A stretch of 63,559 nucleotides of DNA, the filler included, from Sluysia triapertura (lineage: Eukaryota), in assembly GCA_046118255.1 (NCBI GenBank). It is 5 parts of 5 records of this genome, joined end to end, with 100 filler letters (N's around TTAATTAATTAA, not from the genome) between each part and the next. Parts side by side here need not be neighbours in the genome. Positions count along the whole stretch, not along the records: positions 52,090 to 63,559 come from JBJNIA010184413.1; 4 more parts are not named here. One strand, 5' to 3'. The translations under genes and the position numbers were made by a program. Every line of letters begins with the position of its first letter. The stretch's first letter is position 1. Below the pieces are notes generated by a model. That model searched no databases. It was not told the origin of the DNA and saw only the letters and a list, made by a program, of their open reading frames with translations. This document shows, piece after piece, positions 5,988 through 63,559 of this stretch.

Positions 5988-6036
5988 ATAATAATAATAA
6001 TAATGATAATGATAATAATAATGATAATAATAATAA
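5988..6036. repeat. (ATA/ATG)n microsatellite
   Basis: Directly visible trinucleotide run. Similar runs at ~23370-23415, 27238-27295, 36485-36515, 52090-52165 and 62563-62620. Confidence 0.9.
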
Positions 6037-8468
6037 CTTTTCCAAATTACCAAACAAGAAAATCTAAAATAAATAAAGTTAATTGCTAAATAAACAAAAC
6101 TTACTATTCTGATTGTACCTAAATAAAAATTAATTATTTAATAAATACAGAGTAAATTAAAAACTAACGTCTGAATTTTGAGTCGATATAACACAATAAT
6201 TTTGACACAGTAAAAGACTTCTGATCAATTCCATTGGTGCGAAATTAGGTAATTTCGTACGTAATCGTAAATTGTAATTTTATACGCGATTCTAACTGGT
6301 GTATATAATTTTAACTGCTACGTGATTTTAATTTTATGCTTGACTTATAAACGTGGTTCGAATTATTGATAACATTTTTTTGAGATGCATAGTGACCGGC
6401 CATCCATTCAATTTAAATAAAATTTTTTATAAGTTTTTTATTCATAGGATCCCTCTTAGTTTAGTAAGAAGTAATTTCTACTTAGAATATTAAATAAAAA
6501 TATCTCTAGTTTACATTAGAGATAATTTAACTACCAAAATCATCGTTATTGTTACAGATAATAATAATTATTATATAATTTTGTGAGGTTTTCTATTTGA
6601 TATACATAATTTATACAACCTTACGTTATTTAGTTGCAACTGTTATTTATTATTTAATTAATTTTATGAAATTTTTTATAATATACCTTCAAGAGATCTT
6701 AGATTTCGTTTATATATATGTATTAGTGAACTCGAAGTAAAGGACAAATAACTAACATAATTTAAGCTTTTCTTTTAGAAAAAAGGAAGTGTTGAACTAA
6801 ATATTCAAAAAGACATAAATAACAAAGAATCTTTGTAAAACAATAAATAATGCAAAGTGTATAAAAAGAATTAAATAATGACGAGTTGTTAATATTCAAT
6901 TCAAAGAAAGTTAAATTTTCTTACGATAATCAGTTAAGCTTTGTGAGAAATAATAGAAATACCAGATAATCATCAAAGATAAATAATTGATAAGTTGTAA
7001 TCTAGTTTATAGAATTAAATAAAAGATTATAAAAGAGTTAAAACTAATTTATTAATAAAGTTTCAGAAACCTTTTAATAGACCATCGAAGATAAGTTGTT
7101 AAGAGAATTTTAACATTAACTAATAGAAGGTGACAATATTAGGATAAGAGTTACCATTGCTCAATAAAAATTTTTAGACCTGTTAACTAATTATTAAAAT
7201 CCTCCGGAATGTCTTGTAAGCCTAAAACGTTAGTGGTGGCGAAGCTCTTAAGTGAAATCTAATTTGTTAGTCGTTAGGTTTAGGAAAAACGCTAACAAAT
7301 TCATCATTATTCTATGTGTGATAACTAGACTATGACTTTGAATAATGATCTATTATTTGTCTTACCATATGACACACAATATTCAATTGAATTTTATTGA
7401 TCACACATTATGTATGTAATTTATTTATAGATTTTTAACTAAATTATTTATAATTTTGTGACTAAATTATTTGTAATTTTGAATTTATAAAATCAATTCA
7501 TTTTGGAATTTATAAAATTAATTTAATAATATAAGTAATTTGTTTTACTAAAATTATTTAATTGTTTGAATATAATTGTTTAAACCATTCAAGGTCAATT
7601 TTTAAATTAATATAAATACATGACATTTTTGAAACAGAACCACCATTTTATTTTATCATCTGAACAGTTGACTACTTTCGAATATTTGAAAAAACAAATT
7701 TCATATTGTAAAATTCGTTAGTTCGTTTTTATTAAGTTTTAGTACTCACGTAATATCTACTTAAATTAATATTATTGCACATTTTAGAACCATTTAAAGG
7801 TTCTCTGTAAAATATTAATTAAAATCATTCTGAAAAAAATTAACTTGATAAGTTAACTTCGTAAATTTACTATTTATAATTATCTACTGTTATCTGAATT
7901 TTATATTTTTTGTAACGTTTATTTTATTTTATATAACACACATTCCCACATGAAGTTTGTTGTTATTAATTAAAATTTTATTATTAATTCTATTTAAAAG
8001 AATTATATGCAAATTTTATAGTTACAAAATACTAAAATTAATACTTGTACCACATTCCTCGGAAATTTATCTGCAAATCCTATTTAAAAAGGATTTTTGT
8101 AAAATAGCAACTTCATAATTATTTATAAAAGATACTATTACTACATTAACTTCTTTTTATAGGAATACGTAAAATCCATTGTTCTTAATCCTATTCGCAA
8201 AATAACAATTCATTAATAGATATATTCAATTTAACTACTACAGAAACCTTTACTAATAATAATACACTGAGTTTTCCTAAATCTATCATAAATCCCAATC
8301 AAACAGTAAAGAACTAAGGAATTAATTCGATTACGAAGTATATAAGTCAAGTAAGCACAGTTAATTGACCTTCTATAGTTATTTTCTTCTAGGAAATCCA
8401 ACATCTATGACTAGATATGTTGAACTCACACATTCTTATCTTTATTCGTGAGCAAACTAAGTTACGTT

Positions 8469-8654
8469 NNNNNNNNNNNNNNNNNNNNNNNNNNNNNNNN
8501 NNNNNNNNNNNNNNNNNNNNNNNNNNNNNNNNNNNNNNNNNNNNNNNNNNNNNNNNNNNNNNNNNNNNNNNNNNNNNNNNNNNNNNNNNNNNNNNNNNNN
8601 NNNNNNNNNNNNNNNNNNNNNNNNNNNNNNNNNNNNNNNNNNNNNNNNNNNNNN
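8469..8654. other. Assembly gap (186 N)
   Basis: Run of N with no internal spacer. Confidence 0.99.
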
Positions 8655-10339
8655 ACATTAAATAACTTTAAATAAAAGACTTGTATAAAATCTGGGTTGA
8701 AACCATTTAATTATTATGCAGCTGAGATGATGTTTATAATTTTAAAATGTTGGAAAAATATATACTGCGAAGTAATGTAATTTCAAAAGAAAATGTAAGT
8801 GAACCGGATGAAATAGTTGATCATTTCGAATATTATATGAATATTGACTGTATAGACTGTCAAAGTTGAAAGTATAATCTTTTCTGTTTATATTGTTCGT
8901 TTTTATTTTTTACAGTATGTGATAATTTATTTTCAAAAGAACTTTGATTTCCATTTTGTTTTTGAAGAAAAATTAAATAAATTTAATTGCGCATGTAATA
9001 TTAAAAAATAATTTAAAGATTAATAGTATTAATAGTATTAAAATTAAAGATAATATCGCACAATGTCTATTATAAACTTTATTCCTTAAAGTAGTGTTTT
9101 AAAAGCTCTTATGCATAGATTAAATGAAGTTTCAAAAGCTATATCGACAAATATTTACTTATGACCTACAGATCTTAAATTGGATGTTATAATAATAATT
9201 TTGCTATTTGACTATAATTCTACAAAAAATCAAAAGTTTTAAAATATAACCAAAAACTCTGTCACAATTAATCTTAAATAATTCATAAAATCAATAAAAG
9301 AGTTTTAAATAATTGTACGGGTATTGAAATTTAATTAATTTAAAAGTATAAACTTGGACTAAAATATTTTTTATTATTGCGCATATTGAAAGATAAAATT
9401 AAAAAGGAAAATAATTATATTTTTTTGAAGATAAATTTATGAAATTATTTACTTAGAACAAACATTCCGAAAATAAAACATTATTTAATTAACTAAATAC
9501 ATATTCATATAAAAATATATTATTAAATTTGGATGTTAAAAATTATATCTAGCTGAATTAAACGAGTAATTTGTGTAATTAAAAGAACTATATAATAATT
9601 TTCAGATTATAGAACTAAATTTTATTAATTTTATTAATTAAATGAATTTTATTAATTAAAATAAATCATTTCCAACTAAGAGCTTAGTATTTTCGGTAAC
9701 TTCAAAGAAACAGATTAAAAATCCGAAAGAAATATTGAAAAATGGAAAAACATTGAGTAGTATATAAGTACTATGACAATAATACATATACATTAACTGT
9801 ATCATATAATTTGACTTAACTATACAGGTAAGTTAACTGTAGAAAAGCTTTTATAGATTAATTCGAAAAATTAATAGCCTTAAACAGTAAAACTGTATGA
9901 GCTAGATTTTCCAATATAATGGCACAATTCAAAAACATTTTAAATAAATAACCGATTTAGAAACACAAATATTTAGTTACAAATAATTCCGTAATATTCT
10001 CGTTACAATTTCATTTTGTTTCGATTGCCAAACGAAACGAATAAAAAAGATGTGGAACTAAAAATGCAGAATAATTAATACGAAATGATGGAAAAGCAAT
10101 AAAACATTGTTGGAGTCAGAATGATGAAGATGACAATATTTATAGTCATCTTAGGAATTGAAGAATACTTCGGAATTCGAAAATATTGAGACTGGTTTAG
10201 AAAGAGTTTTGGAGTATTGAAGTACTTTGAACCTGTAAACCTTGATACAACTTAAGTTCTCATCAATATTCAAGAATCTTTGAGATCTTGATGAGCATTC
10301 GAGACTTTTCAGTAACTTTGTAAGATATTAAAGAGCCTT

Positions 10340-11830: not shown

Positions 11831-12519
11831 GACCAAATTCGGAAAAGGTTTTCCAGGATTATTTTAAAGTACAAACATTAGGTACTTTAACGCCTTCCGA
11901 ATTTCTCACCTTTTGGTTGTGACATCGATGAAAATCACGATGTCTTAAAACGCTTATTCCTCGATGCTATGCCCCTCACAGTTCAAGGAATACTCGTAGG
12001 AACTCAAAACACTAAGATTGATGAACTGGCCAAGATCGCCGACAACGTCATCTCTATATGGAACAAGAATCACCAACAACCACTTTATGCAATGAACGAT
12101 TCTTCTTCCAACAGCCAAAAACTCAACACTACAACAACCAACAATGAAACACAAAATCTATTAGTGCAGGTCCAAAATTTGACAAAACAAGTCGCGGATC
12201 TTACAAAAATTCTGTATTCAAAATCAAGAGACAACTCTTCAACAAAAAGAGCTAGTTCTCCTACATTTTCAACAAAATCTACCAACTCTAACAAATCAAC
12301 GCAAAACAAACGACCGTTCAACGGAATCTGCTACTACCACAACAGATTCCAACAACATGTTAAATCTTGCTTACTAGGATGTAGATATCCAAATAAATCT
12401 ACAAACCTAACAATTAAGAACTTGTGTGTATATCACTCACACTTTCAAAAAAGTTCTAAAAGATGCATGGACGTTGCATCTATTTTAAACAAAATCTAAG
12501 ATCCCCTACAAAAAACTAA
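11831..12519 (+). pseudogene. gag: Gypsy gag with two tandem CHCC-type zinc knuckles
   Basis: LFLDAMP..VQGIL......IDELAKIAD motif, then CYYHNRF....KSCLLGC and CVYHSHF....KRCMD(G)CIY. The second knuckle is broken by a 1-nt deletion near 12473. Confidence 0.85.
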
Positions 12520-12560
12520 AACTGCCAACGGTCGAAGCGGCTAGACCGAAACGTTTGGCA
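12510..12560 (+). promoter_or_regulatory. Predicted -1 programmed ribosomal frameshift signal (A_AAA_AAC + downstream stem-loop)
   Basis: Slippery heptamer AAAAAAC (12510-12516) immediately before the gag TAA. After 6 nt: TGCCAA-CGGTC (12523-12533) pairing with GACCG (12544-12548) and TTGGCA (12555-12560). The -1 frame reads KLKLPTVEAA toward the protease. Confidence 0.7.
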
Positions 12561-12613
12561 ATCAATGGTATCTTCAAACTGCGCTCACCTACATTGATTT
12601 TAAATATCCTCAA

Positions 12614-12890
12614 TTGGATTTTCTAATAGATACTGGAGCTGCCGTGTCTGTGATCCATCAATGTTTTATCAGAAATACGCCACAGACACATTCTTTCCTC
12701 ATAGCAGCTAATGGAACAACCGTTACCTGCTACGGCTCCAGGAAACTACACTCCAACGAAATCTTCGACTGGACTTTTCTAATCGCCGCAGTCCAGCAAC
12801 CGATTATAGGAGCCGATTTTCTCACTCATTACAAGCTCCTAGTCGATTGCCACAATAAAACCTTAACAAAGTCCATTCAACAACTCAACA
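12614..12890 (+). pseudogene. Gypsy aspartic protease
   Basis: FLIDTGAAVSVI ... LIAANGT ... W.FLIAAV..PIIGADFL..Y.LLVD. Confidence 0.9.
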
Positions 12891-13550
12891 AATCACCTTT
12901 CTAGGCCATAACATCTCCGTTGACGGGATAGAACCACTCGAAACCCGTACAACAGCCATAAGAGACTTCCCTCAACCCAAAACAGTTACACAAATGAGGA
13001 GTTTCTTAGGTCTAGTCAATTATTGTCGACGCTTCATCCCGAAACTATCAGAAACAATAGCACCTTTAACGGCATTATCTTCGGAAAAGAAAAACCAACA
13101 AACAAATCTCTAGAATCTTCTGACCAAATAAAACAGGCAATTATGAAAATGGAAAGTTTAGTGTTTCCACAACATTTACCGTTCACCTTAACAACCGATG
13201 CTTCAAATATAGCAATAGGTGCGGTATTAACACAAATACAACAAGAAACAACCAGACCAATAGAGTTTTACTCCCATTAACTCTCTGCACAACAAACTAG
13301 ATATTCGGCATTCGACCGTGAATTACTTACAATTTATCTTTCCGTCAAACACTTCGAGTATCTTCTACTCCCAGCACAATTCACGCTCAGAACAGACCAC
13401 AAACCGTTGTTACACATCTTTACAATGAAAAACCCCACTCCAAGACAACAACGGCACATTAGCTACTTGTCCCAATTCAACTTCAACATAGAATTCATCC
13501 CGGGACAAGAAAACGTGGTTGCCAATGCACTATCACGTGTAGGTCTAAAT
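12891..13550 (+). pseudogene. Gypsy RT thumb/connection and RNase H (frameshifted)
   Basis: FLGHNISVDGIEP...FPQPKTVTQMRSFLGLVNY; LTTDASNIAIGAVL; RYSAFDRELL; TDHKPL; PGQENVVANALSR. Confidence 0.9.
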
Positions 13551-13719
13551 AACATCGAATTTCAATCAATATTCACAGTCCAAGAGTTACAAAACGATCC
13601 TCCAACTAGTCAAGAAATTTCCAAATTCTCAACAAAACCATCATTACAGAATGGAATTTTCTATGACTGTCAACTATCTGGTACTTCCCAACCAGTACTC
13701 GGACAACTCCGGATCAAAG

Positions 13720-14640
13720 CTTTTGAACACATCCATAATGACTCATGCCGGAGCTAAGGCCACATACGAATTACTACACTCAAAAGTAATATGGCCTTCA
13801 ATGCGCAAAGGCATCAAACACTGGTGTAAAGCCTGTTTGATATGTCAATCGATGAAAATCCACAAAAACATCAAACCACAAACGCTTCACTTTCCTACGG
13901 GCCAACTATTCGATACCATACATATGGATATAGTCGGACCACACCTACATTCTAACCATAATGGACCGACACAGTAGATGGCCCGAAGCGTTTCCAATCA
14001 GATCAATCACATCAGACACCATATCCAGAACCTTAATAACAAACTGGATTTCACGTTTTGGTGTCCCTAAAAGGATTGTCACCGATCAAGGAGCTCAGTT
14101 CGAGTCTAATCTCTTCAACAATTTACTTAAACAACTTGGCACTATTAGACTACGAACAACAGCATATCATCCACAATCCAATGGGATGATAGAAAGATTT
14201 CAAAAAACTCCTTGCGCGCACTAACAATCAATCATAATTGGATCGATCTTTATTAGGCTGGCGCAGTATCCCTCACTCCTCAACAGGATATTCCCCAGCT
14301 CAAGTTGTATTAGGAACAAATACAGGGTACCTTTCGTACTATTCGAAACTGATCACCCTACAGAGAAAACTTACTCACCTCTTCTGCGGCAATACTTCAA
14401 TGAGCTAAATAAACCTACATTACACAACGAAGTTCCTCGCATCTTCATATCTAAATAGAAAATTTGTGTGGTTGAAAACAGAAAACCCAAAATCTCTTCA
14501 ACCAAGATACACCGGTCCATACAAAATCAATCATTTCAATACAAATAATAACACTGCTTCAATCAACATCGATGGAAAATCCAAAACAGTAAACTGGTGC
14601 AAATTAAAACTAGCAATCATGCTAGTTGAAGAAGATTCTT
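13720..14640 (+). pseudogene. Gypsy integrase (HHCC, DDE core, GPY/F)
   Basis: HAG.KAT...WPSM....WCKACLICQ; HMDIVGP; RWPEAFP; TDQGAQFES; YHPQSNGMIER; LQPRYTGPY. Confidence 0.92.
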
Positions 14641-14773
14641 ACAATTATACAGCACAAAAATCTGTAACTTTCAATAATACTGCTACATTCCTAAATGAAA
14701 AAGGGTTACATTTAATACAATTGAAGATACCAGACCTCCAACAATAATAAAAAATATACCGCTCCGCTTCTTC

Positions 14774-14790
14774 GGAGGGGGCTGATGTAG
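14774..14790 (+). promoter_or_regulatory. Polypurine tract and start of 3' LTR (TG at 14786)
   Basis: GGAGGGGG-CTGA-TGTAG directly after the end of pol, the typical Gypsy PPT/LTR junction. Confidence 0.75.
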
Positions 14791-15036
14791 TGGTCAACAT
14801 TAATAACCTAAAATTAAAATTAATACCTCCAAGCCAAATCTTGGAGTAATGATAGAGCAATTTGAAATATATGAAAATCATAATGTTATAGAGTTCGTAA
14901 AGACTATAAAGTTTTTCAAGTTAATGACTTTACCTGATACAGTCTTATCAAAAACGATGAATATAAAATTAATCAAGAAAATGTTTACAAGAACTATGAC
15001 GCTACAAAAACTGTAAAACTAACAATCTCTTTTTAC

Positions 15037-16100
15037 ATGACTTTACTAATTGATTTTCGAATAATTAGGAGAGAACTAATGTCAAATAACTCGGTTTTAC
15101 CAAATAATGATAATCTCAAGGTAAATAAGATCAAAACCCGTATCCAATATTTTATTAGCGAATCAATCGAAAGGAATGATAGTCTTCATGGATTAGTTTG
15201 TAGTCAAGAGTACGATCTTACGTCATTTATGAACTATAACTTTCATAAAGAAAATTTTGAAGGAATTCAGGCAGGTATCAACCACATCTCATTATACTTA
15301 TCTCAAGGTAATGTTTTTATATTAGAACTTATTTTATTGTAACTATTACGTTGGTTATACACTTATCATTTATAACAGTTTTATTATTTCAGAAACTGAC
15401 ACAATCAGGATCCTGAAAGAGAGGAGGTGTATAGAAGAAGTTTCAAAATTAAAAAACGTTTTTATTCATATTGTAATATATAGTTATTATTGTTACTTTT
15501 ACGAATTTGATTTTAAACCTGTGAAAATAAGAAATAATTCTAACATTTCATCAATTTTTAATACATCGAAGATAAAAGTTATAGATAAAATTATAACAAT
15601 AACTAACACTCATAAAACCTACTTCGGACACAACGATAAAGTTTTTAATATAAACATAAAATTAAGTCCAAGAGTTATCTATACGATGATAACAAATGTA
15701 ATAAGCCCTTTATCTCTCGAAAACTTAATAAATTTTTGTGGACAAATCAAAAATTGTATAACAATTAACAAATATGCAAAATTAATATCGAATGAAATCA
15801 AACACATGGCCATCCGAGACAAATATAGGTGTCAGACTAACGCCAACAAAAGACGTTTGCAAACCAATGACACCATATAAAGACTCTCTTTTTCGTAGCA
15901 TTCCTTAGGAATATTAATCACTGGATTACCAGAGAACCCGTAAGTAAATTTTAAATCATAAATTTATTGAAGTTAAGCAATAAATTCATCAATTATTTAC
16001 TGTTATTAATAAATTTTAGACAATTAGAGTTTGTTTTCATTAGAGATTAAAAGGAGAATTCAAATTGATAGTGTACATATAAAAGCACTTCCGTTTCTCA
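15037..16100 (+). pseudogene. Decayed gene-like region of unknown family with short GT-AG introns
   Basis: ORFs 15037-15342 and 15521-15880. Candidate introns 15308-15392 (AAG|gtaatg...tttcag) and 15940-16019 (CCC|gtaagt...ttttag). The 3' part is homologous to 5400-5625. Confidence 0.4.
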
Positions 16101-17649
16101 ATCAGAGATGTGTAAACTCTGATCTTTATAATAACTTTATTATTGAATTAAGACTTTACAAAAAATAATTTTACAGTAATTCTGCCTGGTCAATATAGAA
16201 GAAAATTTTTAAGAAAAGATTTAAGCATAAATCTTTATAAACAGTTATATAATTTGACATATTTAAGAGATTAATTAAATAAGTTTAGAAATAAAATATA
16301 ATACTTTATAATTTGTTAGTTCAAATGTTTCAATTTGCATTAAATCTATTTTGTATTCATATTTTTAAAAGTTGTGCTAGATATTATCAAGACAATAACT
16401 AAGGAAATGAATGTTGAATCAGGAAATAAAGTTTTCTATATTCAATATATACATAATTGAATTTATACATTTTGATATATTTTAACTTCCTGAAATTGTA
16501 TAATATGTAAGAATTCCGATGTATAACATTTTTTTAATTTTGACTATTAAATAAAATTTTAAAAAAATACTTTAAAATGTCAAGGTTACATATTAAACCA
16601 TTTAAAGTTTGAATTTGCAAATAAAATAAAATGAAGGCTGCTTATTTTTGTAAGTGGTACTGAAAACATAGAATAATTCAAATACATTTATTTTACTTTT
16701 GTCTGCAATAAATTAAAAACGCACTTTTTTACACTCTACTTTCTAGCATAAACATACTTTCAATGTGTGTCTTTGGTATTCGTATTTTAAATGTATATAG
16801 AGTTTTATTTTAATTTTCTGTTTGCTCTAATATTTTATTTTATTATTATTATGAATGTTTCAGACGATCTTGTCAGAATTTTTACTACAATCTAAATTAG
16901 CGGCGCATTTTTGTTACTTAAACAATTTTCACTATTTATAATTATATTTCCCTTTAATTAATTAACAATTATGAATTAATTCTGTGCATAGAAGGTTCGC
17001 TTATAATTTATGGTTTATATCGTAAGGAAGGCACAAATTATAAGATTTAAGTCAAAAGAGCTGCGAAAGGTTTCCTTAATATTCTTAGTTGTGATTAGTT
17101 TTTTATCAGCTGAGAGTCAGTAATTTAATGGTTGCAAATGTTTTTTCGATAATGCTTATTTATTTACTTTCTAATGTTTACATCTTGTTATTTTATTCTT
17201 AAATAGTTATTTTAAGTTTCAAATTCTTTAAAGTTATTTTAGTAATAAACAAACAAATTAAAAACTAATGATTTATTAAATAAATGGTGAATCTTTAATA
17301 ATACACACAAATATATATTCCAATTAGAATTTTGGATTTCTCCGAAATTGATTCTTAAATTTTAAAAATGAATTTGACCCAAGTATAATACTTGGGATGT
17401 CGAAAATTGTTAATATTTTAAGTATATATTAATGCTAAAAGATTAAAGTATGAACTTAATAACTAAACTTACGAATTCATGGAATAAAAACGAAATCCGA
17501 ATAAATAATTTGTTGAATTTTTTCCACGAAAATCTTGCTATTCTGTAAGCTGTAACCAAATGTAACTATGATAAAATATTGTTTTCACCAAAATCAGAAT
17601 GAACGTAGATCCTCCTTAAACCAATCTACTCGAAAAACAGATTAAAGAT

Positions 17650-18230
17650 ATTCTTGAGAGTGGTATTGTCTAGAATATGGGACGTAAGTCAGTTGCGTAA
17701 TGCGGCGAAAACCAATCGGTGGTAGGTGAGTGAAGTAGGTACCACTCTCCAAACGACTCAGATTAGCAGTATTACTTTCTAAAGATTGAGGAGAAAAGAG
17801 CGAAAATCAGACGGGGGTAGAGGAAACAATAAAGCTATAGAGGTGGGAAATTCTACCGCTTCCACAACGACCTTGCATCCCTTATGCAAATTTGTGACAT
17901 ATAGGGATGAAAAACTATCTACACGAGTCAAAAAAGGAGATCCGTTATCCATTAAGGTGACCTTAGTTACGCCACGGGCAACAACAAGATACAAAGAAGT
18001 GATACTATCAGGAACCTGAGATAAACCGTCTAACGAAAATGAAAGAAAGCTCCGCAGTTAGTGAGAATATGTGGGTGACCAAGTTTAGATTCAACTCAGA
18101 TTTAAGGTTATTTGAGGTAGAAACATAATTACAGAAAAAGACTGGGGTGGCATTCTTATGGCAATGCTTGTCAATATGGACGTAGAAATTCGAGAAATAA
18201 GAAACTAAAATTGTACAAAAAAATAATAAA
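17650..18230 (+). mobile_element. Degraded non-LTR retrotransposon RT fragment (R2/NeSL/RTE-like)
   Basis: GC-richer island. TRVKKGDPLS (GDPLS at 17936-17950) resembles the RGVKQGDPLSP RT motif, and a later GYL resembles F.YLG. No intact YADD. Confidence 0.4.
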
Positions 18231-21200
18231 TTAGTAAGTTAAAAGGTATGAGTTTATATTTAATTTAAATATTTTAGGAAGGTCACTTTTTTCTTTTTAA
18301 GAAAATGGTTGAGGCCTAAATGGCTTTACTGATTCTTTCTCTTTATAAAAATGTCGATTGCGTCGTTGAAATTTAGTCAGGTTTGCTGGAAAGGGGGCAT
18401 GACAAATCCATTTTTGCTAAGATTCTTATGTGGACGTTTAGCTGGGGAGAAAGAATATCAACTCCAGGTTGCTCATCCGAGGATTCAGTTATATAGTCCA
18501 CAATAAAAATATAAGATCGACGAAATACTGCACATGGAACAAGAGGGCAAGGGAGAATAAGAAATGTTAAAAGATGGTATAAACTAAGGAAATGAAATTT
18601 GTGCAGTAAAGGAAGTGTTCTAGCGTAGTACTTCTTTATTGAACGGAAGCATATAGAACAATGTGTGTAGTACATGATTAGCTGAAACAAAAATATATAA
18701 TAAGACGATAAATATAATTATTAATTCCAATATATTAAATTAAGTATTTGTCCTGTGAAAGTAATTTCCTTATTTTAACAAAATTTTAAAAATGCATATG
18801 ACCAAAATTGATGAAAAAACCATCACAATGGTCAAGTATGCAAATATTATTGTTTTATTTTATTTAGATTTTATTGGTAATACGATTTTTTATTTAATGA
18901 GTAGATAAAATTTTGGGATGAAAATTGCTGTTAAGATATAGTTACCTATTGCGATTAAATGTTGAACTTAAACATTAACGGATCTTATTTTCTTAATGTT
19001 AGAGTTTCGATCTGTCTGAATCGTTTTTGTACTTATCGATGATGGTTTTGGGTAATTAAATTGAAATTAACTTTATGTTTGTTGGATAGATAATTGTGAG
19101 GTGTAATTGAATCAAAATAAAATTTGAGTTTGTTTAATGTAAAATTTCTAGAAATAATTTTATTGAGTTTATCTAATGAATATTTGCTGAAATATTACTG
19201 AAGTACCTTTATTAAAATTTTTTTGGTAACTATTAGAAATTAAAAAACTAAAATAATCTTTAAGACATTTAATAAACATATAAACTGTTTTGTTTATAAT
19301 TAAATGTTTAAGTGAAGATAAAATATCAAATGAACGTCGTTGAACATGTTGAGGGTATGACACTAAAAAAATCAAATAAAAAAGAGTAATAATAAAAGTT
19401 AAGATGCAATATTCGATATCCTGTAAAATCCCGAGCATAAGCTGCAACTAATACGTACATAAAGGCAGCATTTTTGAATTGTAGCTAGTATGATGTGCAG
19501 CTTATACTACTAAAACCCAATTCAAATTGAAGATAAGATTATTTATTTATTTCAATTTTCAACATCACACTCCTCAAAACCATCACACTTTTAATTGTCA
19601 ATAAAAGTGAAATTTTCTAGTAATTCTACAAGGTCATGAAAAACTGCAATGTTTGGATCAGACTTGTTCACATTCATTTCATTTTCTTCAATTTCAAGAA
19701 CATCAACGCAAATGATGCAGCTAATACTTGCTGCAGCTTATACGACTAAAAAATACACTTCCATAAAAACGTACTCTGCAGCTAATACTTTATTATAATG
19801 AGCATACATAATAAATGTATGTATCAAATTAATGGTCATTAAAGATCAGTAAATATATTATTGATATTGATGTGTGACGCAGCGTTAAAATGTTGCGCAT
19901 TGTATCAAAAGTTATTATTGAAAATAAGTTTTATATTTGATTAGATTTATATTCAATTTAAGTTAATGTATAGTTGTATTGACAAGTATTATTATAACTA
20001 TGATCTTAAATTGTAATTTTATTATTTTCAAAAAATAAGAATTTGTTTGTCACAAAACTCATTATCTTTGGATAATTGCTTGATAAAAATTCGAAGGAAA
20101 TTTATGTTCAAATTTGATTACTAAAATTGGTCGGCATAAAGTAAGCATATCGAATTCCCGACTTTCTAGCAATTATCCAAACACTGTATAAAGAACCACA
20201 TTTTTCTATCATTCAACACAAGCAGTACAGATTATTATAACTTTTGCTGTAAGAAAGCTGATTTAATACGGTACTGACAAACACTGATTGAGTCTTAAAA
20301 TTCTTTAGAAAAACGGACTAAATTTTATTAAAAGACCCAACTTATTTGTGGTTAGTTTTTATTGATTATTTATTATATTCTTGGTACTAACATTTATTTG
20401 TGATCTGTATTATAACTGAATTTTATTTTATTGAATAATTAATTATCATAAAACACTGATAAATTAATTTTGACTTAATTATTATTTGATTTTTATTGCA
20501 ATATATTGAGATTGAAAGTCATTTAATTGTCTTTTATAATTTAAAGAATATTAAAACGATAAAAGCACAACAATTTTAAGTCGTAATAAATAAAGATTTT
20601 GATTATAGTTTATCAATAAAATACGATTTAGAAATTAATCAGTAATCAAATCATTTTCGTACTAGTTTCCGCTAAATCTAAATCAATTTTAATAATAAGA
20701 ATTAGTCTCAGAAACATATTGGTGTAACATAATTATTTCAAAATTTGTAGCCACTCTTGAATTAGATTGCGATTATCGTATTAATGATTAACATCATCTC
20801 TAACTTTTTATAAAATCAATTATTGAATAAATCACAAAAATAATCTTTTTTCTTTATAAAGCTAATTTTGTTAGTTAATTATACAAATAAGAAAATTTAT
20901 TAAATGATTTTGAATTGGAATTTGGTGATTAGTGGCACTATACATTCTAATTGTCAAGTAGAATGTTCTATTTATAATGAAATGAGTGATATAAATAATG
21001 ATTTTATAAATTATTTATTTATTTGTACAACTTTATGGAATGGGCATTTAATAATGATTATAATAAAACTATAATAATTATGGTTATGATAAGTGGTTTG
21101 ATGATGATGATGATGATGAATTTCAAGGAAGCAGACCTTATTTAGTTATGTTTATAAATCATTTTTATTTTTATTAAAAATAGATCATGTTTTACATTAT

Positions 21201-32529: not shown

Positions 32530-32733
<204 letters not shown>

Positions 32734-52089: not shown

Positions 52090-52145
<56 letters not shown>

Positions 52146-53619
52146 GTTATTATTGTTATTGTTATTATATTAGTAACAAAAGCATTAACGTGCTTATCAC
52201 AATTCAAATTTACAAAATAAAAGGTTATCTAAAAATATTTTGGATTTAAAATTTTTTAATTTTTCTCAATTTATTAGATCTGTACTTTCAAATATATTGC
52301 TTTCCTTGCTAGTTCTTATTTCGTTTGATTTCTCAATGATCATCTCAGAACTGGTAAAAAATTTCCAAATCATAAACAATGATTTTAATAGATAATAATT
52401 TTTATTAAAAAGCTTCAATTAATTAATCAATTAAATTGAAGAAAAAGTAAAAATAAGCAAAATTTCAAAAAGAACAATGTTTACTCAAGAGTCTGGCAAA
52501 AGAAGTTGATGGAAGCCTTTATTGTACTGTGGTTTTAATGTCCTAAACCTAACCTCATCAGCAAAAGTAGATTAATAGAGTCCGTCTACAATGTGCGACT
52601 TACGAATGGCGTACTTGTAGATACGTGAACGTAATTACTGTGTAGATTCAATGGGATAACTTACTAGTTAAGTTAAGAATCCTTATAATGCTTCTTGTAC
52701 TCTTAAAATGTAGCTTATCTTGTTAAGACTTATTTTATATTAAACGTTAACGTATGTTATATTAAATGCTAATGAAATCTTTGTTATAAAATCGTCTAAC
52801 AATCAATATTCTAATCTCTTTACAAATATGCGACTAAATAACGATCACTTTAAATATTTATTATAAACAATTTTAAACTAAATTATACAAAAATAATAAA
52901 AACAATAGTAATAAATGTAAAAACGGATGTTTATATGACAGTAATCATAATAACGAAGAATATGAATTTAATATGTAATTAATTTAACAATAATAATCAC
53001 AAAAAATATATTATTTCAGAGGATCTAGTCTAATATAGGCTCGGTCAAAAATTTTTGTTAATAAAGATTTTGTCATTGGTCTTAAGGACCAAGGGAAATG
53101 TAAATAGTTTGAGTAGTATTTTCTAACTCTATTCGAGTTTACAAAACTTATCAATTTAGACTTATTACTTGAATAAATTATAGTTGTCCGCTGTAATATG
53201 ACAGATAGTCAAACGATTATTATTGATCTCCAAGTCGATGGTTGTAGATTGTTAGCAAATCTAATTTCGTTTTCGGAATCACTTGATAGCGTTAAATTAA
53301 TTTTGGCCTATTAAAAATCTTAACAAAAATTGTGTGAGAATCTACTTCATTTATGTTTATTTATATGCAAAAAAGAATCCATTAGAATCTAGTAGATTAA
53401 CGGTAATGCATAATTTAATATCCATTAGTTAAACTCCATTAGGCAAATGATAATACATTAATTTTTTGAAAATCCATTAGTTAATGGCTAAAATCAATTA
53501 AACAAATGTAATTATTTTTTGACAATTTATTTTCGAAATTATAATAATAATATTTAATATTTATATTATTCTATTTTTAAAAATAATTAATTTTTTATTT
53601 CTTACTAAACAATAATAAT

Positions 53620-54300
53620 AATGATGTTGGTGGAGAGTCGCATGTAATCATGTTTTTGGATACTACACTCGCTGGACTAAGCGAAGGAATAAGTGAGGGA
53701 GGAGGCAAAATACAATTAAGGATGAAAGAGAGATCGTGTTCTCGGATATAGTCAAAAAGATGAACAAGTTCAGTTGCCATACGCACACAATCGAAACGTG
53801 GCAGAACTGGATACAGAAGCTAAAACGCTTGGAGCAGGTAGAGAAATTAGATTGTGGTTATTGAGATTAATGATTCCTCGAATCCAACCGAATTACAAGG
53901 CTAGGATTAAAGGTTACCAGAATATTGTGAAAATGCGCTAGGAAATAACGTTGCATATCGAAGATATCCTTTGCAGATTTTAAATCATCTTCCTTAATGC
54001 CGTGTACATCACTACGAAAATTAGACATCCGGCAATAAGGGCGAATTTTAGCCTCGACGTGATACTGTCTACTATATGGTGTGCAAGTCAACAGCGTGGT
54101 GACAAGCCACAAACAGAAGTCGCTCTTCGTCGAATACAGACGATGGTGGGTTATGCGAGCGACGTTGTCAAGATCTTTATCAAAAAGATTAGGCATAAAA
54201 GGAATATAACTCAATAGACGGCAACTTAAAAAGAATAGCCAAAAGACGTTGGAATCTCTTGGGCATATATATATTTTGCATTTCATGTTTGACATGCTGT
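53620..54300 (+). mobile_element. Possible R2/NeSL-like non-LTR retrotransposon C-terminal (restriction-like endonuclease) remnant
   Basis: GC-richer island with frame-hopping motifs LDV...SHKQK, RLGI...LKK.....LES..HIY..F, echoing the D.....K..KY and LGI tail of RLE elements. No intact PD motif seen. Confidence 0.35.
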
Positions 54301-54734
54301 GGAAAAGGCATCAACTCTAAAGATTAACGGACTTAATTTAAAGTTACTACTACCTTAACGAGGCAGTATGATGGGATATTAGCCAAGTCGTTCACTGTTA
54401 TGCATGACCTAGTAGCATTTAAAGGGCAAATATAAGTCGCTACATCGAAATTGAGTTCACTCTTAAATTTATTGGGCGTCTCATGCGAATTGGGAAAAAA
54501 GATGGAAAATTTATTTTCGTCACAATACTTATCTAGAAAGAAATAGAAGGACTTCGCTTGGTGCAGTCTCTGTGTTGGAGGGGTACATGATAATTGGTAG
54601 TTGAAATACTAAAGAAGTAATAAAAGTAATAAAATGCTACACATAATTAAATAATTAATCAAACAGTAAGTCTACAAAAATATTTGTTTTTAATTTATTA
54701 ATTAATAAATGACTTTAAAGAAAACCTACACTTA

Positions 54735-55184
54735 TTACATTTTCTTATTAAGAAAAGGATTAGAAGGTTTCGCAGCGTTGTTCTTAAGTTTATCATTTCT
54801 TTTATAAAAATGTTTTAGCTGCTTACGACGTCTATTTCTTTATTGTGATTTGGTTAAACCTGGTTAAAGGACAGGTTCTGGCTTTTGAATAGTTGTATTT
54901 AGTGAAGGTTGTCGAGATTTTGCTGTTGGTTGGGAAATGGTAATGGAATTATCATGATTGAACGTGTTGGTTAAAGAATTAGGTGTTCTTGTTGTATCAA
55001 TAACATATGTAACGCTGAAGTTAAACTTTTTTCAATAATAAATATCTCAACGTCTAACTGTAGAACGACACATCAGACAAGAAGGTAGATGTGCAGGCGA
55101 AGAGTCAAAAAGGAAGAAAAGACAATGAAAATGGAATCTGTGAGTGCAGGGCACACTGAAAAGCGCATTATTGTAGATTGCATT
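54735..55184 (-). pseudogene. RING-H2 finger + basic NLS-like reading frame downstream of Gypsy integrase
   Basis: After ttcag| a single 450-nt frame reads NAIYNNALFSVPCTHRFHFHCLFFLFDSSPAHLPSCLMCRSTV...RNRRRKQLK...KKM* with four internal stops. C-x-H-x2-H-x2-C...C-x2-C is the RING-H2 pattern. Confidence 0.65.
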
Positions 55185-56389
55185 CTGAACATAAAAATTT
55201 ATGACAAGACAATAAATAATTTTAATTATTATTATTAATGAAATTTGTTCTAAAGTAATAAAGAAATTACAGATTTTTAAAATAATACAAGATTGTGTTA
55301 TTTACAAACTCCGAAAAGAATCAAACAAGTTGGTTCTATAATATGACTTTTTGTTTGTGAGGATCAGCCATCGAACAAGGTCAGCTACTACATGACCAAC
55401 TTGTTTCGCTTAACTTTTGAGGAATAAATGAGCTCTACAGCGAAGAAAATTATAAAATTTATGAACCTGCACCAAAAGATTGGTATATTAGTATATAATG
55501 ATGGAAAGGAGTTGCATAGAAAATACATATAAAGTTTTATTATTACAATTTTTGACAAAGTTAAATTAAGATTAGTTTTAGTTAAAACATTATTTAATGA
55601 TTTTTGACTATTCGTGTTAAACATAATTGGTGTACTTAATGATTTTATTTCTATCCTTAATAGTTGACTTGCATAATTGTATCTCCTGAAATTTATCTAT
55701 AATTGTAACTCTTAGATCATACATTCTAATGATAAGCCAGAAGTCTATCGTATCTTGCGTTTCGATTTTTCGTAATATCCATATTCGTATGAATAACATT
55801 CGGTAAGCTGGTAAATGAAACAATTTGATACTTGAATGTGGAGCAATTAATCCGTAATGCAACCCATTGTACAACTCGTAGGCTATAATATTGGTATGGC
55901 TTACAAATGGGTTTTCTATATGTACAATATCACCGTCGTAACGATAAACAATCAGTGGAAATTCAATAGTTACTGATGCTTTTAGAGTTATAGAGAATCC
56001 TTGAAAAGTGAATGGTTTGATCCGAATTTTGTACTTTTGTTCCAATATCAATTTTGAGTTGTGTTAGTTTATACTCGAATTCCAAAATTAGTGTAACTTG
56101 AAATAATTGATATTCAAATAAGTCTTCACATGAGACTATCCAATAAAAAAACTTTGAAGACAAAATTTCATAGTGACATTAACTATTTTTGTATTATTTA
56201 AATTGATAGTAGCGTAAATATCCTTTTGACTGGAATCTAAAGTAATTCGAGGTTGATTATGTTTTGATATTAATCCTATCATGTGAGTATTTTTTGTCAA
56301 TGCTTGTATATCCGAAATATATGTTAAACAGATACAGGATTCTTGTGAGCATTTTATTTGCAATCCTGCTCTTCTCCAAGCATCTTGTA

Positions 56390-58095
56390 AATTTTCTCAT
56401 AATAGTTACATATTCTGGTATATCTAAATATTGTGATGTAGGTGGCACCCAATCTAAGTCTACCGGCATGTTATAATGTCGGCCATACATATGAAAAAAT
56501 GGAGTAAAGTTGGTTGCTGGTTAAACCGAGCTGCGATAAGCAAATAAGCATGGTGCTATATGAAAATCCCAATCATTGTGCCTTTCATTTACATATGATT
56601 GAAGCATATTCATTAATGTGCGATTAAATATTTCTATCAATCCGTCGGTTTGAGGATGGTAGGGTGACGTATAAATTCTTAATATATTAAAGATTTTCGC
56701 AATCGATTTAATTACATCACTTATGAAATGGGTACCTTGGTCGGTAAGTAGTTTTCTTGGCGTTCCGTATCTATAGATAATTTTTTCTACTAATATTTGA
56801 GCTACAGTTTCGGCTTTTTGGTTCAGCATTGGATATACCTCAGGCCATTTTGTCAGATAATTCATAAATACTATGATGCATTTATTTCCCGTTATTGTTT
56901 TCGGAATCGGGCCCATAATGTCCATTGCCGTGAATTTCATAGGTGACACTTTTGTTTTCTGTCCTGTATTTTCGCAATTTTTACACCAAGTCTTAATGCC
57001 ATCCATATTTTCCCAGTATTTATTTTTTATCATAGAGAATGTTTTCCTAGCTGATAGATGTCTTCCTAGTTGTCCATCATGGAACTGAATTAATATTGGT
57101 ATAACTAGTGATTGGGGAATAATTCTCCTTTTGTATTTTTGAATTTTAAAACGCCATCTGTAATTGCAGGTCTTTTTGCTTGTTTATCATTTAGAGTTAC
57201 TTTTGCCATTACGTCAAGTATGAATTAAATATCCTTATCGTCCTTTGATGTTTAACGATTTCCTTGGGATTTTCAATCTTTCCCGAAATAGTCATAATTT
57301 GTGTCAAACTTATATTATCCTTTTCGTCTGTTTTAGTTAGTCTGAACATGCAGTCAGCTCCACTATTTTGTTTTCCGGGTTTGTAAACAATTTCTAAATC
57401 GAATTCGGGCAATTTTGTAAACTACTTATTTCATCCATATGATTGTATAAGTATGTCATAAGTTTACTTTTTGTCCTAAATAGTTTACAAGCATAAACAT
57501 TCCCTTTTTATTGTTGAATAATTTATTTCAGCCTTATTTAGTCTCCGACTGGCGTACGCTATAACTCCTAGATTATTATGATCTTTTTGTCCTAAAATTG
57601 CGCCAATCGCTTAATTACTTGCATCTGTGGTTAATATAAACGGTTTGTTAACATCAGGAAAAATTAGCATTGGAGTGGTTGTAAGTTTCTCTTTTAAAAG
57701 TAAAAATGTTTTGTTTTGATTGTCAGTCCATTCGAATTTTACAGCCTTTTTAGTGAGCTTTCTTAAAGTATTTTACGAATCTTCGATAATAATTATCAAG
57801 TCCTAGAAAGCTCTAAACTCTTTATGTTGTCTGGTTTTGGAAATTTAACCACTTTTTCTATGTTTCTTGGATTTGGTTTAATACCTTATGACACAATATG
57901 TCCTAAAAATTCGACTTGCTGTTAAGCCCATACACATTTTGTGAGTTTTATTTTTAATTTGGCTACTTCTAATCTTTTTAAAATATTATCAGTATCCCTT
58001 AAGTGTGTTTCAAAATCTTTCGAGAAAATTATTGTTATTTATGTAGACCACGACATTTTTACAACCTGATGGAACGAAATTCATGCATCGCTGGT
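56390..58095 (-). mobile_element. Second Ty3/Gypsy pol remnant (RT C-half, RNase H, integrase)
   Basis: QRCMN...VVY(INN)..IFSKDFETHL; VEFLGHIVS; FLGL; FILTTDAS..AIGAIL; YKPGKQN..AD; MDIMGP, KWPE, TDQG, YHPQTDGL.E.FNRTL, FAYRSS. Confidence 0.93.
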
Positions 58096-60539
58096 GTGCA
58101 TGTTAGGATCATTCGATTTTGTAATTAGTTCATCTTTGTAATTAGTTTTCGTAGATTATCTTAGCCATGATCTTGTGTTTTTATGATATTCATGAACCCT
58201 TATACTTACTGTGGTTTCGATACTTACCTCATGTTTTAATTTTGATGAAACGTGATACATTTTGAGGCTAGGATTTGCGAAATGTTTTGATATGATTAGA
58301 AATTAGGTCTGACATAAGTATTGAGTATGAAATGTTAGGCCAAGTGGATTTAATTAACTTTGAACTAGTCTCATTTGTGTTAACATTTTTGAAAGGAGAC
58401 TAATGTCTCTGTTATTTATGAGGTAATTGATAATGCCTTTCATTTCCATAGTATACAAATGAAAACCTTGGTGTAATTTAAAATCACTTTTCAGAGTGTG
58501 AAAACATAAAACGTAAATATACAACACAAATTAATCTTTTCTTTCTCATTTTTTTATTAAATGTATTTAATATTGTTTGTATATCTTTCATGTTTGATCT
58601 TAAACATAAGAAAACCTCTTCGTTACTCTTTCCCTCGTTATGATTAAATTATAATTCATTTTTGACTTTCGGGTAGAGTTTAGATCCCTAGTTTAGATCT
58701 CATTAAGCTTATATTTAATTCCTCATAATTATTATTAAATTTAATTTTGCCAATGGGGTTAAGATCTACTCAAAAAAGAAAGATAATAAAAGATTGGATC
58801 AATTATAATACGCATAAAATTTCAAAATGCACAATAATAAAATTTAAGATACTAAAAAGTTTATAAGAAATGCTGATCAACATGCATGAACTGTTCCAGG
58901 TTCTTCGTAGGATTAAAATTTTTCATGGAAAGTTGATTAATTTATCTCGATAAGGATCAAGTTTTGACATGTTAAAATAAACATAATCCTTAGTACGGCT
59001 TTTCATCATCTTAGATCCGTGCTAACTTTTCGTACACGTAATTATAAAAGCGTAAATTTGTGTTGGTGTTTGTGTAAAAGGCCTTGCGCGGCTTGAATTT
59101 CATCTTACAAAATAAATTGATTATATATGAGTCAACCTACCATTCGTGTTACGACTAATCCGTAGGACTTTTAATAATTACGAATATAGAATAAGGCTAT
59201 CGAAGTCAATTACGAAATAAAATCACGTTTATTATTACTTCGAATTAATTGTAAATATTAAATTACAAATACCTTTGATTCGAAATATGCTTCAGAGTGA
59301 GGTTAAATTAGTTTAAACCTTAAGATCTTGTGCAATTCAGCTTCCACTGGATAACGAGTTTACTAAGGTTCTTTGTAAATAGAACCTGTAAAAAAGGTAT
59401 GATTTTAAATAAAAAGCAACTTAGTGCTACTGATTTTAATAAAAATTACGACTATATAAGTTGTGATAAGTTACTGTTGATCTATTTTAAAAAGATAAAA
59501 TAAAGGATATTTTTATATGGTTACTTCGATGATCAGAATAATTATTATAAAAATGTTAAGATTATTATTATAAAATAACGTTTTAATTTAAAAGTTTATA
59601 GTAACCTTTGATTAAATGATTAACTCATAATTTATTTATGAAAATCTTCACTACAATTAAAATCATGAAAAAAAACTTAATGGAATAAAACTAACGATTC
59701 AGAAGCTGTGAAGTAGCAGTAATCCTCTGAATGAATTATGTATTCTGCAAAAATTATTCTTTAACTGTCGAAATATTATTCGAAGAATGGTTGTTTTGAA
59801 ATTGAGTTATCAACGACAAAATGATGAAATAATTCTTGTCAAAAACAATTGTTAACAAACTAATTGAGTTAAAATAACAGAGTTAAAATTATTGTGTTAA
59901 GATGATTGAGAGAAATAAAATTGTGTTCTAATAGTTGAGAAAAATCACTTTTATACTAATTTTATGTTTTTTGACCCTAAAAGGTCTATTAAATGATTCA
60001 TTAAGCTATTAAGTATTTCTGATATTAAAGTACATTATTTTAGACAATTAAATTATAGTTTTAATAATAATATTTTTGAAAGAATTTTCTTAATTAAATT
60101 GTTTGGTAATTAATATATTATTTCATAATCATTATTATTACACAAATATAATGATAAATACGCATAATAATAAATACAAATATTAAATCAATATAAAAAT
60201 CCTGAATAAAACACTATTTACATAATCAAATGATACATAATTAAATAATTTCAACAAACATAACATTTCAATGTGAACTTAAATTTTTGTATCTAACATT
60301 GTAGTTTAGTTGATTGGATTGAAATTTTCAACAGGAAAAGAATTGACATTAATGTATTATGACATCTATTGACATTGTGTAGAATCTCTAAGTAAGCTGA
60401 ACTTTGATGAAGGTACTGTATCACGACTTAGTTTTGGTAATTGTTTATTTTTCATTAATAAAATGACTGGAAGCAGCCTGATTATAAGTTTAATTTATGT
60501 GTTTATGTTTTTATAAATGACACAATTCGCATTGAGTTT

Positions 60540-60830
60540 GAAATGTTGATGTATTGTTTGAATTATGAATTATGAATTGTTTGTGTGGCGTGGTGCCACG
60601 GAATTAAGATGCCGAAGTACTTTAAGATTAATATGTCTGCATGTATCCGAATGACATTTGTTGGATAATAAGTGTTTAGAAGCGTTGACATTGTAGTTGT
60701 GAATGCATGAAAAGGAATTGGTTTATGATAAATGTTGCTAAGATTAAGAATATGCAGTATACCGAATGATGAAATCACCAAGAAGTCAATATGTTTCAGC
60801 TTCTTATTAAGATAGGACGCGAATATATTA
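60540..60830 (-). mobile_element. Degraded L2/CR1-like RT core fragment
   Basis: GILHILNLSNIYHKPI...IHADILI resembles LGP.LFNIY..P....YADD..I. Confidence 0.45.
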
Positions 60831-61001
60831 GTTAGGAGACAAGCGCATACTTACCAAGGAAACTTATAATTGTAATTTTCACATATTTATGCTTAATTTT
60901 GTGTTTAGTTTCAAAAGATTTAACATTAGGTCGTATAAAATTTAAACAATTAATATTATTAGTGTTGTAAAATTCATCTTTTATACTGTTAACCGTTTCA
61001 C

Positions 61002-61240
61002 TTAACCTTTATCGTACGAATGGTTAATATATTAACCACTGTTTGTACTCGTTTGCCGAATTATAGGAATATAGAAAATTCCATTCTCTTTAATTTCGTT
61101 TTTGTTTCATAAATCTAGTGTAAATAGTACGTGAGCTATGTTATTTTAAGTAAGTATTTGCACCTGATCACACCTTTTGCAAATTAATTCCGTCCGGCAG
61201 GTAATACAAATCAATATAAGTAGCGTACGATAAAGGTTAA
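61002..61240. mobile_element. piggyBac-type MITE (TTAA TSD, 13-bp perfect TIR CCTTTATCGTACG)
   Basis: TTAA-CCTTTATCGTACG (61002-61018) and CGTACGATAAAGG-TTAA (61224-61240). Element 61006-61236, non-coding. Confidence 0.9.
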
Positions 61241-62022
61241 ATATATGGTGTGAATAAGTCTAAAAATACATTTAGAGATGATGTGCAGCAAATTAAAGAT
61301 TGAGTTCGTAAATTCAAATCTTCGTAATTAATGAGTAAATGATATAAATTATTAAAGTAATATCGTGGAATGCATAAAAATGGAAAGATATTGTTACCTT
61401 AGAAACACTTTCTGGTTAAAATATTTGAAGATTAATCTAAAATAAAGCAAGGAGTCGAAATGTTTTCCAGTAAATGTAACCAAATTATATGAAAAAATTG
61501 TGTTCATAGGTTTTGTAGTTATATAGAAATATGTTTACATATTGGCTACTTTAATAAAAATTATTTTTTTCTCATTTATTGTTATACTGTGAGTCTAAAA
61601 AACCAAATTTATTGTAAAATTTTCAAAATATTAAAATGTTGAGAACATTATATTTAAGATGGTTTTGATTGTCTTTAAAAAGCATTATTTAATAAAGTAT
61701 TTATTTACCCCCGAACGAATATATAAGAACCTTGAAAATTATTGAAATACAAAGTTTATAATTATTTATTGATTATAATTATCTATTTAAATTGTATGAG
61801 CACTTATTACTTAACTCACAAGATTCATATTTAGATTTTTACTGAATTTAACTGAAACTTTAGGAATATTTTTAAAATTCAATAAAAACTATTGTTATAT
61901 AAATTTATAATAATAAAATAGAGCAAAGTAAAATATTTTTCACTCTTATTTTAGCTTTAGAAAAATTGCTTTTATTGAATTAAGAAAGTAATATCTAATA
62001 TTTTATATTTTATATTATTCAG

Positions 62023-62213
62023 GGAGAAAATCGTTACATTGAGTCATTATGTCAAACGATATTGTCTGTGGAAGAAATACTTAATGTTCTCAATCATCCA
62101 GAAATAGCCAACCATCTAAAAAGACCATTTTTAAAGTATCTTATGTTTGCTTATTTAAAGAAACCATCATCTAAAGAAACAGACAGTTCGACAGCAGAAA
62201 TACTTAAAGAAAA
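62023..62213 (+). CDS. Internal coding exon of a divergent inositol 1,4,5-trisphosphate receptor-like channel
   Basis: ttcag|GGA...AA|gtaaaa; open 63 codons GENRYIESLCQTILSVEEILNVLNHPEIANHLKRPFLKYLMFAYL..., aligning by eye to ITPR [45 protein letters not shown]. Confidence 0.8.
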
Positions 62214-63071
62214 GTAAAACTTTTATTTTTACAATGTATTATAATTTAACAATAATAAATTCATTCATTGTAAATAAGAAATTGTTTCTTATTTAAGTAT
62301 TATGTTTATATTAAACTGTAATGTATTAAATCATGTTTAATCTTTATATTATTCAGTAGAAAATTGTTTAAATTAATAGTTTTGGATTTTTAGAAATATT
62401 TATACAATAACCAGGTACAAAGTAAAAAATATCTATTTTTATAGCTTTCAAATTTTCAATAAATCACTGCTTTGCATGTCGTATTAGTTAGATAATGCAG
62501 TGTAATATATTTTGATCGAACTGTTTAGATAATTATATTTATTACTAATATTTGATGCAATATAACAACAACAACAATAATAATAATCATAATCATAATC
62601 ATCATCATCATCATCATCAAGAAATCAGATTAAATCATTATTATAATTATTATTAATACAGTTATTATCAAATTCATAACACATTAATGAATACTATTTC
62701 TATAATTGCTCTAAATATTGTTTACCTCCAATTAGTTTTCATATTTTTTTGGCCTCTTAAACTTAGCTTTTAGTTTAATGTTACAACAAATTCAATTTGT
62801 ACAAATTTGTACAAATAATTTAGGCCAAATTATTAGACTAAAGACCATTTTTCAAAATTCAACAAGGATACTACAAAACTATTAATCAAAAGTGTATAAA
62901 TACGTGCCATTTACCGACAGTTGTCACGGAAGATGTAAAATGTTGGAAAATAACTATTTTCTCCAAAAAAATTTTGGTGAAAGTAAAATAGTAGATAAAA
63001 ATACTGGGATCAAAAACGTAAAGAAATTTTATTCATGAACACTGATAACATAATTTACTACAAATCAAATA

Positions 63072-63300
63072 TCAGTAGTTTGTTTGTCCTCTTTTGTTAT
63101 CCAATAATTTCCTGATCTTTAAATGCATGCCATGAATGAGCTTTGGGCACAAATCTTTGATCTCGTCATCGTGATGCCATACTTTTTTCAGGCTTTCAAT
63201 AAGTTTCGTCCTGGTGGTTTGTTTTGACAATCTTCCACAGATCTTCCATGGGATTCATGTCTGAAGAGTTTCCAAGCCAGAGTAGCATCTTAACACCGTG
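63072..63300 (-). mobile_element. Tc1-like transposase C-terminal fragment
   Basis: WLGNSSDMNPMEDLWKIVK (cf. WP.NSPDLNPIENLW), then TKLIESLKKVW...LIHGM..KI..LLDNKRGQTNY*. Confidence 0.88.
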
Positions 63301-63559
63301 AACACTGCAAGGTGATCTCCTCTTATGCAAAATAGATCTGGAGTCCGTCCGACTAACTAGGCATGATTTATATCAAAAGATGACGTCCTAATTAGATTTA
63401 AAAAAAATAATTAAACAGAGTTTAAAAGACTAATCTAAATGACTTAACTAGTTCCTTAAAAATTATAGTATAGTAAATGAGTAACTCTTAACGTACTTGG
63501 TTAAACCAGCCTTCGTACGGTCTGGTCAATAATAATATATATTAGGCTTTAAACCAGCC

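Follow-up and report, generated by a model that had tools for sequence, protein, structure and literature searches.

Gypsy pol fragment and the ORFs behind it

We identified a decayed Ty3/Gypsy pol fragment and, behind its integrase, a row of decayed ORFs that includes a RING-H2 gene in a 63,559-nucleotide stretch of Sluysia triapertura DNA (parts of five genome records joined end to end, hereafter the window). The coding-like blocks B, W, RING, X, Y and Z all lie on the pol strand and are parted by AT-rich spacers of ~100-130 nt, recognised as steps in GC content. A second, diverged RING and X pair is found at 17.6-18.7 kb; this pair and ORFs X, Y and Z do not appear in the first-pass annotation. 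The window as a whole has a GC content of ~23% and is crowded with decayed repeats. The features are:

56340-58200, minus strand: decayed Gypsy pol fragment (end of RT, RNase H, integrase), from Pfam, tblastn and depth
56139-56340, minus strand: in-frame continuation of the integrase (A), an open frame with no GPY motif
55617-56063, minus strand: ORF B, no known family, synonymous bias
55300-55530, minus strand: decayed ORF W (weak), repeated, depth bins 131-590
55185-55300, minus strand: AT-rich spacer (GC 0.13-0.22) ending in acceptor-like ttcag, the previously proposed intron
54735-55183, minus strand: RING-H2 ORF with ATG, eroded first Cys pair, PCTHxxHxxC-x14-CxxC, S/T/P linker, basic patch and stop
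54609-54734, minus strand: AT-rich spacer with AATAAA (54699), ending in acceptor-like tttag
53595-54608, minus strand: ORF X, ~330 codons, frameshifted, no known family, depth peaks 4,000-9,900
53011-53477, minus strand: decayed ORF Y behind spacer 53488-53600 (acceptor-like AG, ATG at +11), depth bins 110-621
52480-52877, minus strand: decayed ORF Z behind spacer 52878-53010, depth 478 at 52482-52863 and 44 below
18290-18675, minus strand: paralogous decayed RING ORF (ATG-YYTH-CSIC, eroded core, basic patch HFYK), assigned by collinearity with X
17606-18204, minus strand: paralogous ORF X, from tblastn and frameshift-aware alignment

The order RT, RNase H, integrase is that of a Ty3/Gypsy LTR retrotransposon. 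Pfam (rve, E 8e-10; Integrase_H2C2, E 3e-8) and tblastn both support the minus-strand Gypsy integrase reported in the first-pass annotation, and extend it to RNase H and the end of RT. Likeness to pol relatives covers 58093-56337, with segments 39-65% identical to the relatives P0002-P0013. Gag, protease and the start of RT were not found upstream; tblastn with 120 relatives returned nothing above 58350, and the pol copy is truncated. No LTR or PPT was found.

In an integrase tree of the window sequence and the best 40 of 120 hits, the window integrase and its 12 nearest relatives (P0002-P0013, 41-56% integrase identity) form one clade with support 100/99. The post-core tails of 11 clade members (omitting P0008, which ends early) are 288-1291 aa long, versus a median of 199 aa in 107 others; some hold an additional protease, others ankyrin repeats or a membrane segment. 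These long in-frame tails recall the window, but they are unlike A, B, RING or X, and a RING motif is present in 0 of the 120 pol relatives. In P0002-P0010, the pol frame runs on to encode another aspartic protease, a set of ankyrin repeats or a beta-rich ectodomain bearing a membrane segment. By eye, the last resembles an env-like tail fused after the integrase; Pfam gave no env match in the seven of these proteins scanned. Integrase scans recovered 68 distant metagenome loci (25-47% identity), none of which matched RING, ORF X or ORF B, and no locus in viral contigs. Pfam detected neither env nor a chromodomain in the post-integrase frames of the window, which could still hide a remote env.

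Repeat status was read from summed contig depth in one public sequencing run (X1), which is possibly the source of the window itself and so not independent; summed depth does not equal copy number and was used solely to tell repeated from unique DNA. The repeated unit extends from ~58200 down to ~52480, so that the whole of 52.5-58.2 kb is repeated. Depth is 17,000-62,000 in the pol bins (56302-58211), falls to ~300 in the next bin above 58211 and drops to 44 below 52481. A total of 963 X1 contigs were placed on 52900-55900, 786 of them less than 95% alike, and all 30 bins of this interval are repeated (minimum depth 61, versus 11.6-26.6 in single-copy contigs). The RING gene had been proposed as the last gene of a unit ending at AATAAA; instead, repeated ORFs go on to ~52480, where no LTR was found at the lower end of the unit. 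Outside the unit, a short repeat of very high depth with no ORF noted lies at 60886-61267.

Likeness to the integrase relatives stops at 56337-56340, before the C-terminal motif, and the frame stays open for a further 67 codons, a run equally open in 58 of 20,000 shuffles. Differences between X1 contigs and the window over 52900-55900 were taken from the best-supported 40 of 458 rows of the difference table, a small sample that yields no dN/dS. In ORF B, 12 of 22 differences are synonymous, versus 26 of 110 in the other five frames (best 40 of 458 rows; Fisher p 0.008). Because the frame past the integrase is open and B shows this coding signature, A and B are likely the family's own pol tail, with B presumably its end, reached via frameshifts. 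ORF B has no relatives in Pfam or in homologue searches, a blank that is no proof of novelty. Its AlphaFold model had a pLDDT of 44 and matched no fold at E 0.001, and was discarded.

ORF W yielded neither a family nor a relative. Ten residues of it match at the collinear position ahead of the 18 kb RING, a likeness that does not exceed the null. ORF X likewise has no relatives in Pfam or in homologue searches that included 1.84 billion proteins, which does not prove novelty. A passing resemblance to the Piwi C-terminus was dropped, as Pfam lent it no support. Four other-copy contigs carry ~32-36 extra bases at 54083-54089, indicating a deletion in this copy of ORF X. Pfam assigned no family to ORF Y, nor to ORF Z in the one frame scanned. 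An acceptor-like AG with an ATG within 21 nt occurs in 4 of 6 cases against a background of 21 of 75 (p 0.056, for a feature chosen post hoc), and the acceptor-then-ATG pattern across the gene row is only suggestive. Low-depth contigs (7-9) link one spacer to another at 54708/55215 and 52986/55211, hinting either that cargo genes are lost as modules or that AT-rich spacers were mis-joined to one another.

The RING-H2 ORF and its paralogue at 18 kb

The RING ORF carries PCTHRFHFHC-x14-CLMC, a linker rich in S/T/P, RNRRRKQLK, a stop at 54737 and AATAAA at 54699, all of them where the first-pass annotation had placed them. Its 450-nt (150-codon) frame holds as far as motif and end are concerned, but is interrupted by four in-frame stops (55049, 55034, 54866 and 54842) that the first-pass annotation does not mention, and two of which are sense codons in most other contigs (best 40 of 458 rows). 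The suggested profile check found a zf-RING_2 match in the RING half (E 5e-4) whose 20.7 bits lie below the 27.3 cut-off, and the best PDB sequence matches of this half are RING E3 ligases (RLIM, E 0.02). The core, C-x-H-x2-H-x2-C...C-x2-C, retains the last six of eight ligands, with the first pair eroded. This core is common to RLIM, APC11 and RBX1, to which the likeness is weak; in the 55 kb copy, unlike in these ligases, neither the first ligand pair nor the loop is intact. With four stops and the first RING loop missing, the 55 kb copy is dead.

The gene as a family appears to be multi-copy and selected. Depth peaks at ~4,000 over the core (55098-55113) and at 1,891 over the basic patch (54799), with a trough of 228 in the linker. 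Ten differences fall in the RING frame among the best 40 of 458 rows: four are synonymous, four are non-synonymous and two remove stops private to this copy. The three deepest, all in the core, are third-position synonymous changes in that same sample.

An ATG lies two bases behind the acceptor, and the frame from 55183 reads MQSTIMRFSVC, with an eroded first Cys pair; by eye, it aligns to MYYTHCSIC of the 18 kb paralogue. The distance from acceptor to PxxH is 34 nt here versus 70 nt in the paralogue, 36 nt shorter, and another contig has a joint at 55152-55155. Given the shortened spacing, the ATG frame and this joint, we conclude from the sequence that the RING loop has been lost near 55152, and that the ORF is likely self-contained, starting at its own ATG just behind the acceptor. 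A start at this ATG makes CSEC, CII(C) and a coding intron unnecessary. Specifically, CSEC (55191-55180), once offered as the first ligand pair, overlaps the proposed acceptor and cannot be coding if the intron is real, and the eroded CII(C) of a preceding exon gives way to the eroded Cys pair that the ATG frame itself supplies. The proposed intron boundaries, gtaatt at 55270 and ttcag ending at 55185, are indeed present 86 nt apart. A role in joining coding exons finds no support in the 18 kb paralogue, where the aligned position shows no canonical GT donor. The spacer at 55185-55300 is 74% identical over 85 nt to 18682-18765, a value within chance at the DNA level for such AT-rich sequence.

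In the paralogue, the ATG lies seven bases behind a similar acceptor, and the ORF ends in the same HFYK basic patch as the 55 kb copy. Its first Cys pair is present and its core eroded, the reverse of the 55 kb copy. A spacer follows, and then a frame homologous to 54551-54005 (tblastn E 6e-10). Frameshift-aware alignment of ORF X with 18190-17606 scores 102, versus 41 for the best of 20 nulls. The 18 kb RING has no match of its own in Pfam or PDB, so its assignment comes from collinearity with X. DNA-level alignments of the two RING regions fall within the AT-rich null (80 versus 58-103; 131 versus up to 147), and their kinship is therefore argued at the protein level only. Upstream of RING and downstream of X, likeness between the two copies is not above the null.

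Linkage of the RING gene to the retrotransposon

We favour, with a probability of roughly 0.6, the interpretation that W, RING-H2, X, Y and Z are a decayed copy of the 3' cargo of a large Ty3/Gypsy retrotransposon. The RING row and the Gypsy integrase share a strand with no assembly gap between them. Single contigs from other copies make the joints 55797/55525, 55410/55202, 55178/55023, 55099/54851, 54945/54770 and 54629/54532 (among the 15 listed of 41 joints); the six joints chain B, W, RING and X by one contig each, three of them with sides shorter than 30 nt. Linkage is argued from the shared strand, the repetition and its outer ends, from the cargo-prone integrase clade, and from these contigs chaining B to X. 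No contig among those listed spans from integrase to RING. The earlier view of a Gypsy element carrying a RING gene stands as to a multi-copy RING-H2 ORF behind the integrase, for which cargo is the best reading, while the enclosing LTRs were not found.

Alternatively, W to Z could belong to another high-copy element, such as a large DNA transposon or an endogenised DNA virus, abutting or nested with the Gypsy near 55.6 or 56.3 kb. This is the less probable explanation, though a serious one. No pol lies upstream of the 18 kb pair on its strand, RING depth (~4,000) falls short of most listed pol peaks (8,000-164,000) by ~10x or more, and integrase likeness ends ahead of the C-terminal motif. 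Short ORFs set apart by AT-rich spacers, together with RING genes, are reminiscent of large DNA viruses. Depth also dips to 118 at 55620, near the point where one diverged contig departs from the window; this contig covers 55331-55646, reaching 30 nt into ORF B, and its remaining 321 nt are unaligned. Equally deep dips (61-89) occur inside ORF X, so that dips do not mark element ends. The frame is open across 56340, the contig joining ORF B (55797) to 55525 crosses the other proposed boundary, with a 33-nt side, and no transposase or viral family was detected in the frames scanned.

A single cis-spliced gene, of the element or of an expanded host family, with RING and X as its exons and AATAAA in the intron, seems improbable. 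It is true that in both copies RING and X are separated by a spacer of ~85-130 nt that contains an acceptor. The spacer at 18 kb holds a branch-like TACTAAT, and from the acceptor at 54609 onward the conserved frame of X is open. Against this, two stops close the RING frame before the spacer, at 54737, the donor and acceptor phases disagree in both copies without a frameshift, an ATG stands at +21 after the acceptor, and depth peaks in the thousands would hardly be expected of a host family. An unrelated single host pseudogene or chance motif, which the Pfam scores under cut-offs and the four in-frame stops might have suggested, is extremely improbable: the sequence is repeated, with depth peaking on the motif, and has a collinear paralogue at 18 kb and synonymous differences (best 40 of 458 rows). 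The repetition and the synonymous differences largely refute the unrelated-pseudogene interpretation.

If the row is indeed cargo of the Gypsy element, all ORFs would have lain within one LTR pair, and each would have been reached by splicing the LTR transcript to the acceptor before its ATG, as for env or ORF3, the RING gene having a spliced message to itself. Its product would, judging from the RING-H2 family, be an E3 ubiquitin ligase with a host protein as substrate; the RING-H2 domain would recruit an E2, while a nuclear target would be brought in by the basic tail. We speculate that the target might be a host restriction or silencing factor; as a BIR domain was not seen, we consider control of apoptosis the less likely role. 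The nuclear location and anti-silencing role proposed previously are guesses from the basic patch. Rather unlikely in our judgement is a bolder version, in which a 3' battery of at least five accessory genes, each with its own acceptor, would share a single LTR transcript and be released from it in an operon-like manner, through alternative splicing or through trans-splicing of a spliced leader. That version, with the same low probability, would take in a stand-alone RING-H2 ligase and a new family X, retained across subfamilies that are only 25-43% alike.

Relation to known elements and surrounding sequence

Ubiquitin-pathway cargo in Gypsy elements is already published, and the concept is not new. 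The available text on Burro (GYPSM1) of planarians describes a giant Gypsy element of thousands of copies with extra domains linked to ubiquitination and apoptosis (PMC6431247), and Burro1 is described as carrying a RING and BIR protein, 'B-IAP' (PMC13465017, citing Lee et al. 2026). As far as these sources describe it, Burro is over 30 kb long and combines BIR with RING and a giant gag-env-pol polyprotein, its extra domains lying in one ORF1 polyprotein of ~4,900 aa or in an upstream ORF, whereas the RING described here is a separate short ORF 3' of the integrase. The window RING is a RING-H2 near the N-terminus without BIR, and in these respects differs from Burro as described. Pfam gave no match to BIR, MATH or ankyrin in the cargo frames scanned.

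The available text on the bdelloid rotifer elements Vesta and Juno describes a captured, family-specific ORF3 behind pol that is expressed via spliced messages (PMC5408684). The ORF3 types described there are GDSL, DEDDy, coiled-coil, membrane or env, as against ~5 ORFs in the row described here, and the word RING does not occur in the available text (PMC5408684). A stand-alone post-integrase RING-H2 ORF in a Gypsy element was not found in the literature, judged mostly from titles and the openings of abstracts, with subscription papers and Repbase outside this scope.

If the linkage is true, a Gypsy element would have captured a RING ligase a second time, apparently independently and with a ligase not of the IAP type, and the locus would add a 3' cargo of several genes from families without known relatives. 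It would then offer a direct handle on how a retrotransposon counters host control through ubiquitin. The operon-like arrangement, if true, would amount to gene expression in the style of complex retroviruses in an invertebrate retrotransposon.

Elsewhere in the window, a second, unrelated decayed Gypsy (~30% identity) lies on the plus strand at 11891-14790, with a purine run ahead of TG near 14775-14786 and two ORFs of no assigned family at 14938-15880. Pieces at 19400-19760 (minus strand) and 62800-63559 resemble pogo/Tigger and Tc1/mariner transposases; Pfam gave no match for either. The piece at 19400-19760 may break up the sequence ahead of the 18 kb RING, and that at 62800-63559 is highly repeated by X1 depth. 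Rfam returned zero matches across 52100-63559. A weak match (E 0.07) on the plus strand at 61999-62217, to the same region in several IP3 receptors, is possibly a host exon of an IP3-receptor-like gene. Together with the kinase exon given next, it points to a eukaryote, probably an animal. A host exon of an NDR/STK38 kinase was identified on the plus strand at 32530-32634 (E 8e-14).
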